In this document: positions 18,309 through 23,925 of the stretch, piece after piece | Position numbering within the stretch: position 1 is the first letter of the stretch | How the letters are laid out: each line of letters starts with the position of its first letter | Assembly (NCBI GenBank): GCA_965218795.1 | Contig: OZ244653.1 | Coordinates: 3,552,001-3,616,000, forward strand | Source of the DNA: a bacterium | GTDB lineage: Bacteria > UBA8248 > JACPRG01 > G963555815 | Reading direction: 5' to 3' | DNA length: 64,000 bases | Notes under the pieces: generated by a model | Databases searched by the model: none | What the model was told of the DNA's origin: nothing | Seen by the model: only the letters and a program-made list of their open reading frames with translations | Translations under genes and position numbers: made by a program

Positions 18309-19165
18309 TGTTCTGAGATGGTATTCCCCTGACAGTTGGCCACGTTGTGCAGCGTGGTCATGCCGCCCCTGGGGAGTGTGTAGGATGGAGTTATCACCCT
18401 TCACCCCCACCCTGACCAGGAGACAGGACATGACCACGAAGGACAAGGCAGCACGACGCAAGCTGTCGCTGCTGGAGCTCGCCAAGGAACTGGACAACGT
18501 AAGCCGCGCCTGCAAGGTGATGGGGTACTCACGGCAGCAGTTCTACGAGATCCGGCGCAACTTCCAGACCTGCGGCGCCGAAGGGCTGATCGACCGACTG
18601 CCCGGACCGCACCCGAACCGGGTGGCGGCACAGGTCGAGGCGGCGATCCTGGATCATGCGCTGGAGCATCCGTGCCACGGTGCACTGCGGGTCGAGCAGG
18701 AACTGAGACTCAAGGGCATCCAGGTCTCCTCGCGCGGGGTGCGCGGGGTGTGCAGCGCCACGGGCTGTTGACCAGGCACGAGCGCCTGCTACGGCTGGAG
18801 ACGGCCACGGCCGAACGCAGGCTCGAGCTCAGCGAGGAGCAGACCCGGCTCCTGGAACGGTTCTCACCGGAGTTCCGAGAACGCCCCATACCGGCTCCCT
18901 GGTGGCCGTCGATACCTTCTTCGTCGGCGCCCTCAAGGGCGTGGGCAAGGTCTATCTGCAGACCGCGATCGACTGCCATTCACGCCATGCCTGGGCGCGC
19001 TTGTACCCGAACAAGCTGCCGGTGACCGCCGTGCACCTGATGAACAACGACGTGCTGTCGACCTTCGAGGCCGCCGGCACGCGCATCGAGGTGGTATTGT
19101 CAGACAATGGCCGCGAGTTCTGCGGCCGGCCCGACAGGCATCCCTACGAGCTGTTCCTGCGTCAT
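18309..19165 (+). mobile_element. IS481-family remnant (frameshifted, 3'-truncated transposase from ATG 18430)
   Basis: Starts TGT; LLELAKEL.NVSRACKVMGYSRQQFYE HTH, VDTFFVG.LKGVGKVY, SDNGREFCG. Confidence 0.85.
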
Positions 19166-19253
19166 GATAGCTTGAGTCAAGGTCTTCCTGCCTGATCGGA
19201 TTCCTCGCAGGGGCCTGAGGCCCCTCCGTCGGAAGGCGGGCATCCATCGCAAG

Positions 19254-19305
19254 ATGAAAGTTTTTGAGGGGGGATGGGGGAGACAATTTTCAAAATGCCC
19301 CCCCC
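19254..19305. repeat. Dispersed ~50-bp intergenic repeat, copy 1
   Basis: ATGAAAGTTTTTGAGGGGGG...GACAATTTTCAAAATGCCC; near-identical copy at 63469-63519. Confidence 0.8.
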
Positions 19306-19434
19306 AAATTTCGGGAATTACATTCTTAACTTGACAAGGGGGCACGGGCGGGGCAGGTCTCCTTCAAAGGGAGACATCCGGCCGGAGTCAAAACCGGATG
19401 CTGGATTGGCTCCCCCGCACGCGAAGGATGGATT

Positions 19435-19653
19435 TCACGAAGTTGGTAAATACCCTTCTCGAGTTGCGGCATCGAGCATTTGCGGAAGGGCCTCGACAGG
19501 AAACTCACCACCACGGGCAGGCTTCCCATTTCGGTCAAACCAAGTGTATTTGACGGATTTGATGGTCTCGTCTCCCCCAGCCCATGAAGCCACCCCAAGG
19601 CGAATTTTACAGTTTTCGTCATTTCTTGCTGTCTCTTCATGCTCTGTTTCCAT
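19435..19653 (-). CDS. Small hypothetical passenger protein, 72 aa
   Basis: GAGAGGGG RBS; second gene of a two-gene operon. Confidence 0.6.
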   Translation of the reverse strand: METEHEETARNDENCKIRLGVASWAGGDETIKSVKYTWFDRNGKPARGGEFPVEALPQMLDAATREGYLPTS

Positions 19654-19666
19654 TCTCTAGCCCCTC

Positions 19667-19852
19667 TCAGTAATGCAGCTCGTTCCAGTCGAATTCGATG
19701 CAGGATCGTTTTATTGCGACCTGATTGTCGAATGGATCCGCTGTGAATTCTTCATACAGCCATTTCGCTTCCCGCTCTAGGTTGAACAGGGGAACCCCCT
19801 GCATGATGGCCCTCGCAAGAAGGCGTCGCTCCGCAAATTCTTTGAAAGTCAT
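19667..19852 (-). CDS. Small hypothetical passenger protein, 61 aa
   Basis: GGGAGG RBS; 13-nt gap to next ORF. Confidence 0.55.
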   Translation of the reverse strand: MTFKEFAERRLLARAIMQGVPLFNLEREAKWLYEEFTADPFDNQVAIKRSCIEFDWNELHY

Positions 19853-19894
19853 TTTCCAATTTCCTCCCCTGGGGCACTTGTCCCCATGAAGGTA

Positions 19895-19995
19895 TTGACA
19901 AATGTGTTGTAGGGAAGTAAATTGGAGGGTGTCTTAGGTCCTACCAATCCACTTCCGGTCAACCAATGTTCTGTGATACCCCCACTGGGGGCGGC
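19895..19995 (+). ncRNA. Candidate promoter plus short structured RNA (unit 2)
   Basis: TTGACA(19895)-17-TAAATT(19918); GGGTGTC/GATACCC stem; CCCCC-ACT-GGGGG hairpin; no plausible sense ORF. Confidence 0.4.
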
Positions 19996-20122
19996 TTATT
20001 GGTCCGTGTCGCCTTCATCCTCGGGCATCGGTCGCCGATACTTGACCTCACGTTTCGGCGTTTCCACCAGCGCCCGGTTGGCTTCCTCGGGGTTCCAGCC
20101 CTACGAGATTCAACTCACGCAT
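19996..20122 (-). CDS. Small peptide A2 (~41 aa after removing one G), paralog of 20926-21078
   Basis: MRELNLV|GWNPEEANRALVETPKREVKYRRPMPEDEGDTDQ; ATG overlaps the stop of the 100-aa ORF. Confidence 0.55.
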
Positions 20123-20417
20123 CGGGGGGGATCCAATTTTCTTGTAGCCAATTAAACATACTTCTGTCATCCTTAGAAGGACCAAATCCGGCCCAATCTT
20201 TTATTACCACCTCCGAGACAAGGAGAGTGGATCCAGGAGCCAACCCTTTAATTTGTTCTCGAATGGATTGTGCATTAATTTCTTTCTCAAACACGATCAG
20301 CCATACACCATCAATCCAGTGCCACCAAAAGGCTTCCTGCTCTTCTATCCATTTACGGATAGACTCGTTAATCTCTTTCGTCTGAGAATCGATGCCGACG
20401 AAGAAATGACGCCTCAT
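20115..20417 (-). CDS. Small Trp-rich alpha/beta passenger protein, 100 aa
   Basis: ATGA overlap with upstream gene; FWWHWIDGVWLI and WAGFGP motifs; AT-rich. Confidence 0.7.
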   Translation of the reverse strand: MRRHFFVGIDSQTKEINESIRKWIEEQEAFWWHWIDGVWLIVFEKEINAQSIREQIKGLAPGSTLLVSEVVIKDWAGFGPSKDDRSMFNWLQENWIPPDA

Positions 20418-20772
20418 TCTTTCTTTTCATCCTCACCATTGAATTGCGATGGCAATTTGATGGTTCCGTCGATATCAATGAATACCCCCTTGCTGTCATC
20501 GCCTTTCCAATGCTCAATGGCCATTTTGATGAGTGAAAATTTCTCTGACCGAAGAAGGGATGGGTCTCTGAAAAAGGCACAGATAAATACCACCAATAAA
20601 ATCACTAAGGACAAAGCAATCAATGCGAGAATAAATTTAATTACATAATGGGGAGCCTCAACAGACAGGCTCAAAATCAGTGCAGAACATATGGTCCCAA
20701 TGCAATAAGGATAGTGGACTTTTTCCACGTCCCCTGAGACTGCTCAAGGAATGATTTAAGGAAATTGACCAT
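20414..20772 (-). CDS. Two-TM membrane passenger protein (probable 1-nt frameshift near 20696)
   Basis: MVNFLKSFLEQSQGTWKKSTILIALG joins TICSALILSL...FFRDPSLLRSEKF..KMAIE if GGG is GGGG. Confidence 0.65.
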
Positions 20773-20799
20773 ATCCACAACCTTCTGGGTGGAGGCCGC

Positions 20800-20912
20800 T
20801 TGACACAACGGGTGGGTGGGTGCATATTCTTACCCGCGCGCGCTGTCCGCATGGCCTCCTAAGATCGTGTTTGCGGACCACAAAGCCAGGACCCGACGTC
20901 CTGGCTTTTGTG
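20800..20912 (+). ncRNA. Candidate promoter plus ~80-nt sRNA with anti-SD loop and terminator (unit 1)
   Basis: TTGACA(20800)-17-CATATT (or 19-TATTCT); GTCCGCA/TGCGGAC stem with CCTCCT in loop; AAAGCCAGGAC-CCGAC-GTCCTGGCTTTT terminator. Confidence 0.55.
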
Positions 20913-20925
20913 CGTCTAGACTGTG

Positions 20926-21078
20926 TTATTCGCCTTCTTGCTTCTCCTCCTCGGGCATGGGCCGGCTGTATTTGACCTCGGGTTTTTCCTTCACCAGCGC
21001 CCGGTTGACCTCTTCGAATTTCCCGTAGAGGGGGTTCGTCGGAGCCTCTTCGTCAGTTTCCTGCGGCTTCTCCGTCAC
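20926..21078 (-). CDS. Small acidic peptide A1 (50 aa) overlapping the transposase 3' end
   Basis: GGGAG RBS + GTG; MTEKPQETDEEAPTNPLYGKFEEVNRALVKEKPEVKYSRPMPEEEKQEGE; below the ORF-track cutoff. Confidence 0.7.
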   Translation of the reverse strand: MTEKPQETDEEAPTNPLYGKFEEVNRALVKEKPEVKYSRPMPEEEKQEGE

Positions 21079-21985
21079 TGATAAGCTCCCGGTACGGCAG
21101 GCGTTTTCCGAACATGCCCCGCGCGATCTGTTCGAGGCACCGCAGCGTATCGCCCTTCATGTTATGGCGACCGGAGAACTCGGTCAAGTATCGATGCAGG
21201 TGCTTCACGCTCATCTGGTGATAAATCCCGTAGTGCCCGCGCTTCAGGAGCGCCCAGAAGCTCTCGATCCCGTTCGTGTGGACCTGGTTGCGGACGTACT
21301 CGCCAACGGTGTGCCTCACCGTCTCGCGCACGAAGGGGATGCCTTTGTACTCGGCGGCGCTGTCCGTGTAGACCATGCTCCCGGGCCGGACGTTCTTGGT
21401 GATTTCCTCGTAGGCGATAGCCTTGTCGAACTTCTTCAGTGGAATCGCCCGAACCTTGCCCGCCTTCCGGTCCCTGATGCCCATGACCGACTGCTTCCCC
21501 ACGCCGCCGCGCCCCTGATTCAGCTTCTTCGACGAGTGCTTGTTCATCTCCTTGCCGCCGACAAACGCCTCGTCGATCTCGATCTCTCCCGGACCCATCG
21601 GCTCGCCGTGGTCAAGGTAAGCCTCTCGGATGCGGTGGGCCAGGTGCCAGGCGTTCTTCTGTGTGATGCCCAACTCCTTCGCCAACTGGACGCTCGATAT
21701 CCCCTTCCGAGCCGTGGTGATGAGATACGTCGCCAGCAGCCAAGTCCGCAACGGAAGCTTCGACTTCTCAAACACCGCCCCGGTCCTCACCGAGAAGTAT
21801 TTCCGGCAGGATTTGCACCAGTACGGCATGGGCTTGGACTTCGGAACCGGCTTCGTTTTCCCAACGGTCCCACAGTGCGGGCAGTACCGCTCCACGGGCC
21901 ACCGCAATTTCTCATAAAATCGCCGGGCCGCCCCCTCCGTCGGAAATTTCTCAGAAAATTCCAAAAAACTCATGTGCCCTTTCAT
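21053..21985 (-). CDS. IS1595-family (ISXO2-like) DDE transposase
   Basis: CPHCG..CKSC zinc ribbon, GISSVQLAKELGITQKNAW HTH, EIDEAFVGG, YTD, HTNGIESFWALLKRG. Confidence 0.96.
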   Translation of the reverse strand: MKGHMSFLEFSEKFPTEGAARRFYEKLRWPVERYCPHCGTVGKTKPVPKSKPMPYWCKSCRKYFSVRTGAVFEKSKLPLRTWLLATYLITTARKGISSVQLAKELGITQKNAWHLAHRIREAYLDHGEPMGPGEIEIDEAFVGGKEMNKHSSKKLNQGRGGVGKQSVMGIRDRKAGKVRAIPLKKFDKAIAYEEITKNVRPGSMVYTDSAAEYKGIPFVRETVRHTVGEYVRNQVHTNGIESFWALLKRGHYGIYHQMSVKHLHRYLTEFSGRHNMKGDTLRCLEQIARGMFGKRLPYRELISDGEAAGN

Positions 21986-22034
21986 TTACAAAGCTCCCTT
22001 TTGGCCTTACATTGAAGGGAAGGAGGTCCTCACT

Positions 22035-22235
22035 GTGAAAATCACAATCACGGAAACCACCATCGAGGTAGAAGGGGAAAAGGGCTCCCCTATTCGTTGG
22101 CACAATCTCTCAGCTTTTGCAGGATTACCGGAAGCTGAGATGGTGAAACGAGTATCTGGATTTCTTGAAGGGCTGGAGAAGGAGCTCCTTGAGGGCCGTT
22201 TGTCGAAGCTCGAAAATCGCTCTCTTTGCTTGTGA
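22035..22235 (+). CDS. Small hypothetical protein (66 aa) divergent from transposase
   Basis: AAGGAGG RBS 8 nt before GTG; overlaps antisense ORF 22090-22314. Confidence 0.5.
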   Translation: MKITITETTIEVEGEKGSPIRWHNLSAFAGLPEAEMVKRVSGFLEGLEKELLEGRLSKLENRSLCL

Positions 22236-22314
22236 TGTACTCCAGAACCAACACGATTTCGGTCCCATCGCGGCGAACATCGAACCCCTGAAGAAAATTC
22301 GCTTTCCTGTCCAA
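22090..22314 (-). CDS. Small hypothetical protein (74 aa), first ORF after the inward TIR promoter
   Basis: GAAAGGGGGA RBS + TTG. Confidence 0.5.
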   Translation of the reverse strand: MDRKANFLQGFDVRRDGTEIVLVLEYITSKESDFRASTNGPQGAPSPALQEIQILVSPSQLPVILQKLRDCANE

Positions 22315-22330
22315 TATGATTCCCCCTTTC

Positions 22331-22366
22331 TGCTTATAATATAAGCATTTAGAGGGATTCTGTCAA
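22331..22366 (-). promoter_or_regulatory. Inward sigma70 promoter with -35 inside TIR and a palindromic operator over -10
   Basis: rc TTGACA(22366-22361)-17-TATATT(22343-22338); TGCTTATA-A-TATAAGCA at 22331-22347. Confidence 0.65.
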
Positions 22367-22467
22367 GTAATAAATATAATTCCCAAAATTTCATCCCCTG
22401 AAATCTGGTATCCTAAAGGTGCATTCCGATCCGAACGGATGCGTATGACACAGAGGGGGGAACCGCC

Positions 22468-23193
22468 ATGGTCAGGATCGCGGCAAGACCGGAGCCGATC
22501 GAGATCAACCTCGCCCGGACGGCTCTCATCGTCGTAGACATGCAGAATTCCTTCGGAAGCAAGGGCGGCATGCTGGATCTGGCCGGACGGGATATCTCGG
22601 GCGCCCCGCCGGTCATCGCGGTGCACCACCGCCTCCTCGACACGGCCCGAAAGGCCGGCGTCCGGATCATCTATCTCCAAATGACCTACAAGCCGGACCT
22701 CAGCGACGCGGGCGGACCAGACTCTCCCAACTACCACAAGCAGGTGGGGGTTGTCATGATGCGGAAACGCCCGGAACTCCACGGGAAATTCCTGGTGAAG
22801 GGCACGTGGGACTGGAAGATCATAGAGGGGTTGGAGCCCCAGCCCGGGGATTGGGTGGTCGAAAAGCCCCGGTACAGCGGGTTCTGCGGAACCGCGCTGG
22901 ATTCCCTGCTTCGGTCCGAGGATATCCGCTACGTCATCATGACCGGGATCGCGACGAACGTGTGCGTGGAGAGTACGGCCCGGGACGCCTTTTTCGGGGA
23001 GTTCTGGCCCATCCTGGTGGAGGATGCCGTGAACCACACCGGACCCGATTTTTGCCGCGAGGCAACACTGTGGAACATGCAGAGATACTTCGGCTGGGTC
23101 ACGAACTCGGACACGTTGATGGAGATCTTCGACGCCGCCACGAAGCGCGCGGTCATGGAAGATCCTGCAGAGGAAGGCGCAGCCGCCGGCTGA
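22468..23193 (+). CDS. Isochorismatase-family cysteine hydrolase, RutB-like (copy 1)
   Basis: VVDMQN, KPRYSGF, GIATNVCVESTARD (D-K-C triad). Confidence 0.9.
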   Translation: MVRIAARPEPIEINLARTALIVVDMQNSFGSKGGMLDLAGRDISGAPPVIAVHHRLLDTARKAGVRIIYLQMTYKPDLSDAGGPDSPNYHKQVGVVMMRKRPELHGKFLVKGTWDWKIIEGLEPQPGDWVVEKPRYSGFCGTALDSLLRSEDIRYVIMTGIATNVCVESTARDAFFGEFWPILVEDAVNHTGPDFCREATLWNMQRYFGWVTNSDTLMEIFDAATKRAVMEDPAEEGAAAG

Positions 23194-23211
23194 TCGAGAG
23201 GGAGAAACGAA

Positions 23212-23925
23212 ATGGTCAAGATTGCGGCAAGACCGGAGGCGGTTGAAATCGATCTGGAACGGACGGCCGTCATCGTCGTCGACATGCAGAACGCCTTCGC
23301 CACGAAGGGCGGAGCGATCGACCTGGCAGGGGACGACATCTCGGGCGCAGAGCCGGTTATCGAGGTGCACCACCGCCTGCTCGACTCCGCTCGAAAGGCC
23401 GGCGTCCGGGTCATCTACCTCCAAATGACCTACCAGCCGGATCTTCACGACACGGGCGGTCCGAACTCACCCAACTACTACAAGGAGGTGGGACCCACCC
23501 TGATGCGGAAACGCCCGGAGCTCGAGGGAAAGATCCTCGTGGACGGGACCTGGGACTGGCAGATCGTCGACGGACTGGAGCCGCAGCCCGGAGACCTCGT
23601 CGTACCGAAAACCCGGTACAGCGGGTTCTCCGGTACGAACCTGGAATCCCTGCTCCGGACCGAGGACGTTCGGCACCTCCTCTTCACCGGGATCGCGACC
23701 AACGTATGCGTGGAGAGCACGGCCCGGGACGCCTTTTTCGGAGAATTCTGGCCCATCCTCGTAGAGGATGCCATGAACCACACCGGACCCGACTTTTGCC
23801 GGGAGGCAACGCTCTGGAACTTCGAGCACGTGTTCGGGTGGGTCACCCGAACCGGGAGCTTGATTGAAATCTTCGATGCGGCCGCCCGGCGGGGAGCGAT
23901 GGAAAAGGCCGGGCAGAAGGGGTGA
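23212..23925 (+). CDS. Isochorismatase-family cysteine hydrolase, RutB-like (copy 2)
   Basis: Same motifs; close paralog of the upstream gene. Confidence 0.9.
   Translation: MVKIAARPEAVEIDLERTAVIVVDMQNAFATKGGAIDLAGDDISGAEPVIEVHHRLLDSARKAGVRVIYLQMTYQPDLHDTGGPNSPNYYKEVGPTLMRKRPELEGKILVDGTWDWQIVDGLEPQPGDLVVPKTRYSGFSGTNLESLLRTEDVRHLLFTGIATNVCVESTARDAFFGEFWPILVEDAMNHTGPDFCREATLWNFEHVFGWVTRTGSLIEIFDAAARRGAMEKAGQKG

Follow-up and report, generated by a model that had tools for sequence, protein, structure and literature searches.

The 64,000-nucleotide window analysed here (positions 3,552,001 to 3,616,000 of contig OZ244653.1, assembly GCA_965218795.1, from a bacterium of the UBA8248 lineage) contains a transposon of the IS1595 family of insertion sequences (IS). 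The element is bounded by imperfect terminal inverted repeats (TIRs) and a target site duplication (TSD). Its minus strand encodes an intact transposase followed by a short open reading frame (ORF) called A1, a prophage-type cassette of two genes, a truncated copy of A1 called A2, and two small ORFs, p61 and p72; a candidate small RNA gene, RNA-2, lies on the plus strand between A1 and the cassette. An initial annotation of the locus had proposed that its interior is a stack of repeated units, each made of a small A-type peptide gene, a convergent regulatory RNA and a pair of genes. Our findings favour a recently inserted, single-copy 'transporter IS' whose patchwork, partly phage-derived cargo was recombined within a conserved A sequence, a reading to which we assign a probability of about 0.6. 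The repeated 'peptide' is the conserved leader of the second gene (ORF2) of this transposon family and not a marker of cassettes.

Structure and mobility of the element

A repeat search of the region found an inverted repeat of 31 nt, 84% complementary, between 19306-19336 and 22361-22391, and by reading of the sequence the TIR cores are identical at 20 of 24 positions. The TIR type of the element (GGGAATTATATAC..ACTTGA) is also present on its relatives L024, L043, L064, L087, L100 and L102. The transposase matches DDE_Tnp_IS1595 (PF12762) at E=4.3e-35 over profile positions 4-153 of 153, and its N-terminus matches Zn_ribbon_IS1595 (PF12760) with 27.8 bits, the cut-off being 25.4. Aligned over its full length with 36 relatives, the transposase retains every column that is invariant among the 37 proteins, including D138, D208 and E241. 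The element thus has the features of IS1595 membership: a DDE transposase, a zinc ribbon, TIRs with an 8-bp target duplication, and internal passenger genes. Members of the family with passenger genes are in print as transporter IS (tIS; Siguier et al. 2009, cited in PMC3129680). The likeness to these elements extends to the N-terminal position of the zinc ribbon, to TIRs that start with GGG and to the placing of passengers between the transposase and the distal TIR; the difference is that the passengers here form a mosaic of three patches together with a truncated duplicate of the ORF2 leader. ISPna2 and ISNwi1 are subgroup names.

Evidence for mobility comes from public assembly contigs of the sequencing runs X1, X5, X6 and X9, which were aligned to the element region; in X5, X6 or X9 a region that lacks contig cover is not evidence of absence. 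Contigs of X5, X6 and X9, which belong to three studies, connect 19300 directly to 22382 and omit 3081 nt; either flank piece differs from the window by 0-1 letters. This joint is an empty site, and therefore the whole TIR-to-TIR content, all cargo included, moved as one unit (omitted stretch 19301-22381). Together with the inverted repeat and the profile matches, the empty-site contigs uphold the boundaries, the TSD with its seven matches in eight positions and the intact IS1595 transposase of the initial annotation, and the omission of 3081 nt as one block agrees with its claim that the cargo is carried inside the mobile unit. Run X1 probably represents the source sample; one of its contigs, 4,162 nt long and from a separate assembly, is identical to the window over 19131-22800 and confirms its sequence.

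The element is single-copy in its own 5.17-Mb genome. X5, X6 and X9 also contain copies of the transposase part that are 96-98% identical to it, a few percent of their letters being different. In X5 and X6 the sequence of these copies past the right TIR does not resemble the window, so those two runs have the element, or a near twin of it, at other sites. Cargo content differs among near-identical copies in the contig comparison, which is in line with the initial annotation. A low-GC insert of 333 bp in the transposase leader is bridged by a joint from 21986 to 22320 in contigs of X5 and X6 (side 30, which is borderline), and other contigs of the same runs contain it. The GC content of this insert is 0.45-0.47; that of the cargo is 0.42-0.50, compared with 0.60-0.68 in the flanks.

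Table 1. Features of the IS1595-family element, in window coordinates.
Feature	Position	Strand	Size, basis and remarks
Left TSD copy	19305-19312		7/8 match with 22385-22392; at end of REP-like (repetitive extragenic palindrome) repeat
IS1595-family transposon	19313-22384		3,072 bp; TIRs, TSD and transposase
Left TIR	19313-19336	+	Inverted repeat; TIR type GGGAATTATATAC..ACTTGA
p72, small cargo protein	19435-19653	-	Viral homologue
p61, orphan ORF (candidate)	19667-19852	-	No relative
Sigma-70-like site P1	19895-19923	+	Divergent from p61; 10/12 matches
Short GC hairpin just past A2 stop	19979-19991		Sequence
A2, 5'-truncated A copy	19996-20100	-	Stop codon included; translation and DNA alignment to A1
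30-nt segment common to a 359-bp two-copy repeat elsewhere	20085-20114		97% identity to L004, L005; junction of A2 and gene pair 1
Trp-rich protein, second gene of prophage cassette	20115-20417	-	100 aa
2-TM (two-transmembrane) partner gene, frameshifted	20414-20772	-	N-terminus in frame of 20677-20808, rest in frame of 20414-20728
Candidate small RNA gene RNA-2	20800-20916	+	Putative promoter 20800-20828; predicted transcript ~20834-20916, two hairpins, second a predicted bidirectional terminator
A1, ORF bearing the ORF2 leader	20926-21078	-	50 aa; 26-nt overlap with transposase 3' end
Transposase, intact	21053-21985	-	310 aa, IS1595 family
Low-GC insert, transposase leader	21987-22319		333 bp; present or absent among ~96-98% identical copies
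Putative transposase promoter	22338-22366	-	11/12 sigma-70-like matches; -35 within right TIR
Right TIR	22361-22384	-	Inverted repeat; contigs of X5 and X6 leave it into different flanks
Right TSD copy	22385-22392		7/8 match with left copy; joint contigs

The A sequence as leader of a second gene

A1 begins at a GTG codon with GGGAG 7 nt upstream and is likely to be translated. Structure prediction gave one short helix, at residues 21-28, the remainder being of low confidence, and a comparison of A1 with longer proteins found no match. Its kinship with A2, which had been proposed from the outset, holds at the level of DNA (78% identity between 20015-20055 and 20945-20985, 81% between 20065-20096 and 20992-21023) and of protein (72% identity over 25 aa). 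A2 is nevertheless no second peptide gene, as had been thought, but a 5'-truncated copy without a usable start: it keeps only the part from '..EEANRALV' to the stop, has an in-frame TAG upstream and no ATG, and its sole in-frame start, a GTG, would give 23 aa. The hairpin that follows its stop codon can be read as the 3' hairpin of the A gene, and it seems to recur beside the A-type stop region in a low-depth X5 contig.

What A represents became apparent from relatives of the transposase encoded at 80 genome loci and 80 metagenome loci, none of which is more than 56% identical to the protein in the window. A profile hidden Markov model of the leader, built from 12 seeds, found the A motif directly after the transposase in 34 of the 80 genome loci, 10 of the seeds being among these matches. 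Of the metagenome loci, 76 extend 120 nt or more past the transposase stop, and 49 of these have the motif there. The relatives are TIR-bounded elements of 2.0-4.3 kb with their cargo 3' of the transposase, the minimal ones consisting of transposase and ORF2 alone (L034, 2034 bp; L093, 2014 bp). In these elements the motif is the N-terminus of ORF2, a protein usually of 290-370 aa (roughly 340 aa) whose gene in most cases overlaps the transposase gene, stop codon included, by 8 nt; the overlap of A1 is 26 nt. The expectation that A-type peptides recur at the cargo junctions of relatives was therefore right as to the motif and wrong as to a free, delimiting peptide.

The remainder of ORF2 varies widely. 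A Pfam scan of 32 of the 34 leader-bearing ORFs (the short L035 and L065 were omitted) assigned 12 to P63C, three to C5 DNA methylase, two each to RhuM and Bro-N, and one each to D12 adenine methylase (Dam methylase) and KilA-N, and 11 had no Pfam match. When the leader profile was compared with 5.8 billion proteins, 129 matched at E<=1e-3; they carry the same set of domains with the addition of PF26567 and one ParA-like ATPase, and most of them are encoded on contigs of 2-4 kb. Across the clade the leader is joined to at least seven unrelated domain families. All synonymous codons are in use at the Pro, Ile, Phe, Val and Ala positions of the conserved motif, which argues for selection on the leader peptide and not on the DNA. 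The leader profile had no match among the sequences of the PDB. We found no description of the motif or of a domain-swapping ORF2 in the full-text literature, a search whose scope does not take in the IS-specific catalogues ISfinder and TnPedia, so an earlier description is possible. The IS21 (IstB) and IS66 (TnpB/C) families resemble these elements in having a second ORF that overlaps the transposase stop inside the TIRs; the difference here is that this ORF is constant only in its leader of ~25 aa, its body being exchanged among at least seven domain families.

A tree of 147 of the 161 transposases (those with stops, X or fewer than 250 aa were dropped) contains a clade of 91 leaves, with a support of 0.87, to which the transposase of the window belongs. 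It is made up of 78 A-bearing leaves and 13 others, and no A-bearing leaf is present among the 56 outside it. A1 can be aligned with 25 leaders and lies, like ORF2, at the transposase stop, but with 50 aa and no domain it lacks the linker and the DNA-binding or methylase body of ~300 aa; short forms of ORF2 are also present in L035, L065, L111 and L178. Its motif and its position in this clade identify A1 as a shortened form of the family ORF2.

Several other loci bear on the distribution of the leader. Some elements with GGGAATTATATAC-type TIRs (L039, L098, L076 and L043) have small Lys-rich ORFs with a related '..PEDIAKAMF..' motif, either at the far end or as the beginning of the ORF that follows the transposase, possibly another variant of the leader that escaped the profile. 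The genome under study (coordinates prefixed C1) has two further TIR-bounded cargo elements of the IS1595 type, at C1:4236220-4240651 (4.4 kb) and C1:4624983-4628209 (3.2 kb), both without an A leader; the first carries restriction-modification-like genes resembling those of L039 and a transposase gene with an in-frame TGA. At L007 (1435-1611; C1:2483789-2483962) the A leader motif is found in an ORF of 58 aa that has a basic tail. The neighbouring, convergent gene encodes a transposase of the IS3 family, and there is no IS1595 transposase in the vicinity.

The cargo genes and RNA-2

The genes past A1 on the minus strand had been described as a pair composed of a 2-TM protein and a Trp-rich protein. 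The Trp-rich family has 423 cluster representatives at E<=1e-3. The AlphaFold2 model of the protein (predicted local distance difference test, pLDDT, 92) has the order strand-helix-strand-strand-helix-strand and would correspond to a ferredoxin-like fold; a Foldseek search of the model against the PDB returned generic ferredoxin-like folds only (best E 4e-3) and no specific match. No member of the family turned up in the 160 IS1595 loci, elsewhere in the same genome or in 50 further genomes of the phylum, and collections of plasmid and phage records gave no match to the protein. The family is present in 26 viral contigs, and in 26 of 26 the Trp-rich gene begins where the gene of a 2-TM protein with the motif LR[ST]E stops; many of these loci are near-identical, and L197-L206, L212 and L213 share one protein. 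Prophages thus do carry the pair as a conserved cassette of two genes. In L189 it adjoins apparent spanin genes and in L192 an apparent gene for the small terminase subunit, phage-accessory positions that were judged by eye from translations.

In the window the first gene of the cassette is broken. An alignment of the 2-TM protein with its viral homologues shows the LRSEK motif, and the family profile is split by a frameshift, positions 4-28 being in the frame of 20677-20808 and positions 31-108 in that of 20414-20728. The full-length partner in the viral loci has ~125-150 aa, and a word search with the 2-TM ORF found only the ORF itself. Pair 1 thus stands as a conserved pair, with one of its members damaged at this locus.

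The second supposed pair, p61 and p72, did not hold. A viral contig of 118 kb (L215) encodes a homologue of p72 with 62% identity over 69 aa but no p61-like neighbour, and a weak lead connects p72 with PC4/YdbC (score 0.77). No protein search found a relative of p61, a candidate ORF only, and the two are not a conserved pair. The cargo proteins had no informative family in Pfam, PHROG functions or NCBIfam, and no match to PADLOC models at E<=0.05 except for one 12-bit match driven by transmembrane segments; these scans contained nothing indicative of a dedicated stacking mechanism or of a toxin-antitoxin or defence function, all of which had been suggested.

Plus-strand promoters had been placed past both copies of A, and sigma-70-like sites with 10/12 matches each are indeed found there (19895-19923 and 20800-20828), the region as a whole having five such sites against 1.9 +/- 1.4 in shuffled sequence. 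Of the two structured RNAs that were thought to follow them, one survives. RNA-2 (20834-20916) folds into two hairpins with z = -3.2, and the loop of the first contains CCUCC; as had been noted, its 3' end falls just short of the A1 stop codon (20926-20928), by ~10 nt, and A1 is not overlapped. On the minus strand its second hairpin (20882-20908) lies past the A1 stop, where this terminator would also end the transposase-A1 transcript. RNA-1 (19929-20012) has z = +0.34 and no T tract and folds no better than shuffled sequence.

RNA-2 has one paralogue, at 3413174-3413293 of the genome, with 76% identity; the -35, the -10 and both stems are conserved, the stems being identical in these only two copies. 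A covariance model built from the two copies had no further match in 50 genomes of the phylum, none that was significant in the 160 loci of IS1595 relatives (best E 0.6) and none in 27 viral loci. RNA-2 is therefore outside the IS backbone and outside the phage homologues of the cassette, and these loci give no support to a convergent promoter and hairpin RNA conserved in related elements. In both copies a distance of 27 nt separates its -35 from the start codon of a divergent neighbour, which is the 2-TM gene here (start at 20772) and a DUF6731 gene at the paralogue, and this shared spacing assigns RNA-2 to the 5' end of a cargo gene and not to the peptide. RNA-2 is probably a real small RNA, one that came in on foreign DNA together with the gene next to it, to whose 5' end it would be a divergent or antisense partner. 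Rfam had no match at the paralogue loci, and in the region its best hit, inside the A1 coding region, reached 20.9 bits against a gathering score of 49.5.

A similar layout was seen at L004 and L005 (regions of C1:3051410 and C1:945347), which share a 359-bp repeat that is 99.7% identical. It contains the start of a Cys-rich ORF of 103 aa, a divergent TTGACA promoter at a spacing of 28 nt, and 30 nt in common with 20085-20114; a tRNA scan of four loci, made in case this shared segment is a tRNA fragment, found no tRNA. The RNA-2 paralogue itself is part of a low-GC island, C1:3413174-3414730 (L002), beside Mu-like portal and head-morphogenesis genes; the island also holds the DUF6731 gene, a membrane ORF of 149 aa and a third A tail.

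The surroundings of the element have features of their own. Its insertion point is the end of a REP-like intergenic repeat (19235-19311) that consists of a hairpin followed by a G-rich/C-rich palindromic tail and has more than 30 copies in the genome. Directly to the left of the element, 18376-19195 is a remnant of a transposase gene spread over several frames, with HTH_29, HTH_32 and HTH_28 and an integrase-like core. To the right, in 22468-23448, the gene next to the element seems to have a diverged duplicate behind it: 22468-22779 is matched twice by contigs, 63 letters being different, and a joint that goes back 333 was reported.

Proposed origin of the patchwork and possible significance of the leader

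These observations suggest a route by which the element could have been assembled. Its backbone consists of the two TIRs, the transposase with a promoter whose -35 falls within the right TIR, and A1, a short ORF2 which is reduced to the leader and an acidic tail and overlaps the 3' end of the transposase gene. The cargo is made up of three patches of low-GC foreign DNA: the 333-bp insert in the transposase leader (patch 1), RNA-2 with the prophage-type cassette and its frameshifted first gene (patch 2), and p61 with p72 (patch 3). An older element with the order transposase, A, hairpin, p61 and p72 may have recombined inside A with DNA that carried a diverged A fragment (78-81% identity), RNA-2 and the cassette, leaving a full A1 beside the transposase and the 5'-truncated A2 as a scar beyond the new patch. 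The same A repeats could also delete patch 2 again, which would fit an X5 contig in which 19995 and 20945 are connected by way of a stop region resembling that of A2. We found no dedicated cassette machinery, and this route would need none. The anatomy, the mobility of the unit as a whole, the distribution of the motif, the frameshift and the conserved state of the cassette are direct observations; the recombination route, the expression of the RNAs and any function of the cargo are what we infer from them.

A number of points weigh against the favoured explanation. The variant with a single A is weak evidence, coming from one low-depth X5 contig (depth 3.3) with about 24 nt left of the joint at 19995, as estimated from bin depth. 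The transposase of the window sits on a long branch, no relative being more than 56% identical to it, so the ancestry of its A sequence is drawn from distant kin, and its TIR type is found mostly on relatives that have no detectable A-ORF2. The RNA-2 paralogue has the third A tail (..RYRRPMPEEEE..) at a distance of 1.4 kb, beside Mu-like prophage head genes, so a link between A tails and RNA-2 may exist in some form outside this explanation; at that locus the module and the A tail are oriented the other way round with respect to each other, and the vicinity has no IS1595 TIR. Finally, expression of RNA-2 and of every cargo gene is putative, having been read from sequence features.

Among the alternatives, the view that the cargo is the inert junk of a dying element, in which everything beyond the transposase and A1 (ORFs, RNA-2 and promoter-like sites alike) would lack a function here, strikes us as unlikely. 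The frameshift in the 2-TM gene, the truncation of A2, the orphan status of p61 and the strong terminator that stands between the transposase promoter and the cargo all speak for decay, and sigma-70-like sites arise readily in low-GC foreign DNA, in keeping with their only modest excess in this region. Such decay is hard to square with the recent transposition of the whole unit and its intact transposase, with a Trp-rich gene and a p72 that are intact members of conserved families, or with an RNA-2 whose promoter and stems are conserved at 76% overall identity.

A reading of patch 2 as a type-I-like toxin-antitoxin or phage-exclusion module, with the 2-TM protein as toxin or exclusion factor, RNA-2 as antisense to its 5' leader and the Trp-rich protein as modulator, is distinctly improbable. 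The 2-TM and Trp-rich genes are a strictly conserved, overlapping pair in 26/26 prophage or phage contigs, often in accessory-gene positions. The 27-nt distance of RNA-2 from the start codon of the full-length 2-TM gene implies that any mRNA starting further upstream would be antisense to it, and the CCUCC of its first loop is also in favour; no minus-strand promoter was found upstream, however. Duplex energies between RNA-2 and the start regions of six local genes, and between the paralogue and the DUF6731 gene, did not beat those of shuffled sequence, although the method is weak and sets no length limit. The comparison with phage morons and type I toxin-antitoxin systems is apt insofar as there is a small accessory operon of foreign composition with a promoter and terminator of its own, a divergent small RNA by a membrane-protein gene, and prophage homologues. 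The differences are the size of the partner protein, which at ~125-150 aa is far larger than the toxins of type I systems, and the break in its gene here; toxicity and antisense overlap are putative in our case. Moreover, the viral homologues of the cassette lack RNA-2, the paralogue of RNA-2 is paired with the unrelated DUF6731 gene, and none of PADLOC, PHROG functions, Pfam and NCBIfam assigns a function.

Least probable is the model of the initial annotation, a gain of stackable units each marked by A and controlled by its own convergent antisense or small RNA: it can cite the two A copies as direct repeats around patch 2, the promoter-like sites past both, the conservation of RNA-2 in its paralogue, the third A tail near that paralogue and the variable cargo of near-identical copies, but the two 'units' share only the A fragment, A2 has no usable start, RNA-1 is unstructured, the RNA-2 model matches 0/160 relative loci and 0/27 viral loci, A is fused to ORF2 in relatives and not free, RNA-2 does not overlap A1 and its pairing to local start regions is not above shuffles, one cargo gene is broken, pair 2 is not conserved as a pair, and the orientation of the module relative to the A tail is reversed at the paralogous locus. 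With integron gene cassettes the model shares the idea of stacked, independently acquired units at a fixed junction; according to the ORFs, Pfam and the repeat search, however, the element has neither a tyrosine integrase nor attC-like or other recurring inverted repeats at its unit borders, its sole repeat is a coding fragment, and its units differ in build and orientation.

The idea of an RNA-regulated, stackable cassette system thus gives way to that of an ordinary transporter IS which gains and loses patches by recombination, and whose very recent insertion is documented by an empty site. The analysis also brings to light a widespread, uncharacterised prophage cassette of two genes (2-TM and Trp-rich ferredoxin-like) and one candidate small RNA. 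The leader of ORF2 that runs through the family is of greater interest than the RNA-cassette idea. We may speculate, although we regard this as unlikely, that its ~25 aa, with a short helix in an otherwise disordered peptide, are an adaptor that couples the domain following it (P63C, RhuM, Bro-N, KilA-N, C5/Dam methylase, ParA-like or PF26567) to the IS1595 transposase or its DNA complex, and that its coding sequence, being conserved among related elements, also provides a homology 'handle' for the swapping and stacking of cargo. If so, this IS1595 clade would be a modular transposon system made of two proteins, in which the accessory head can be exchanged. A leader that is conserved at the peptide level on the second gene of a large IS1595 clade offers a direct way into the role that accessory genes play in these very common elements.

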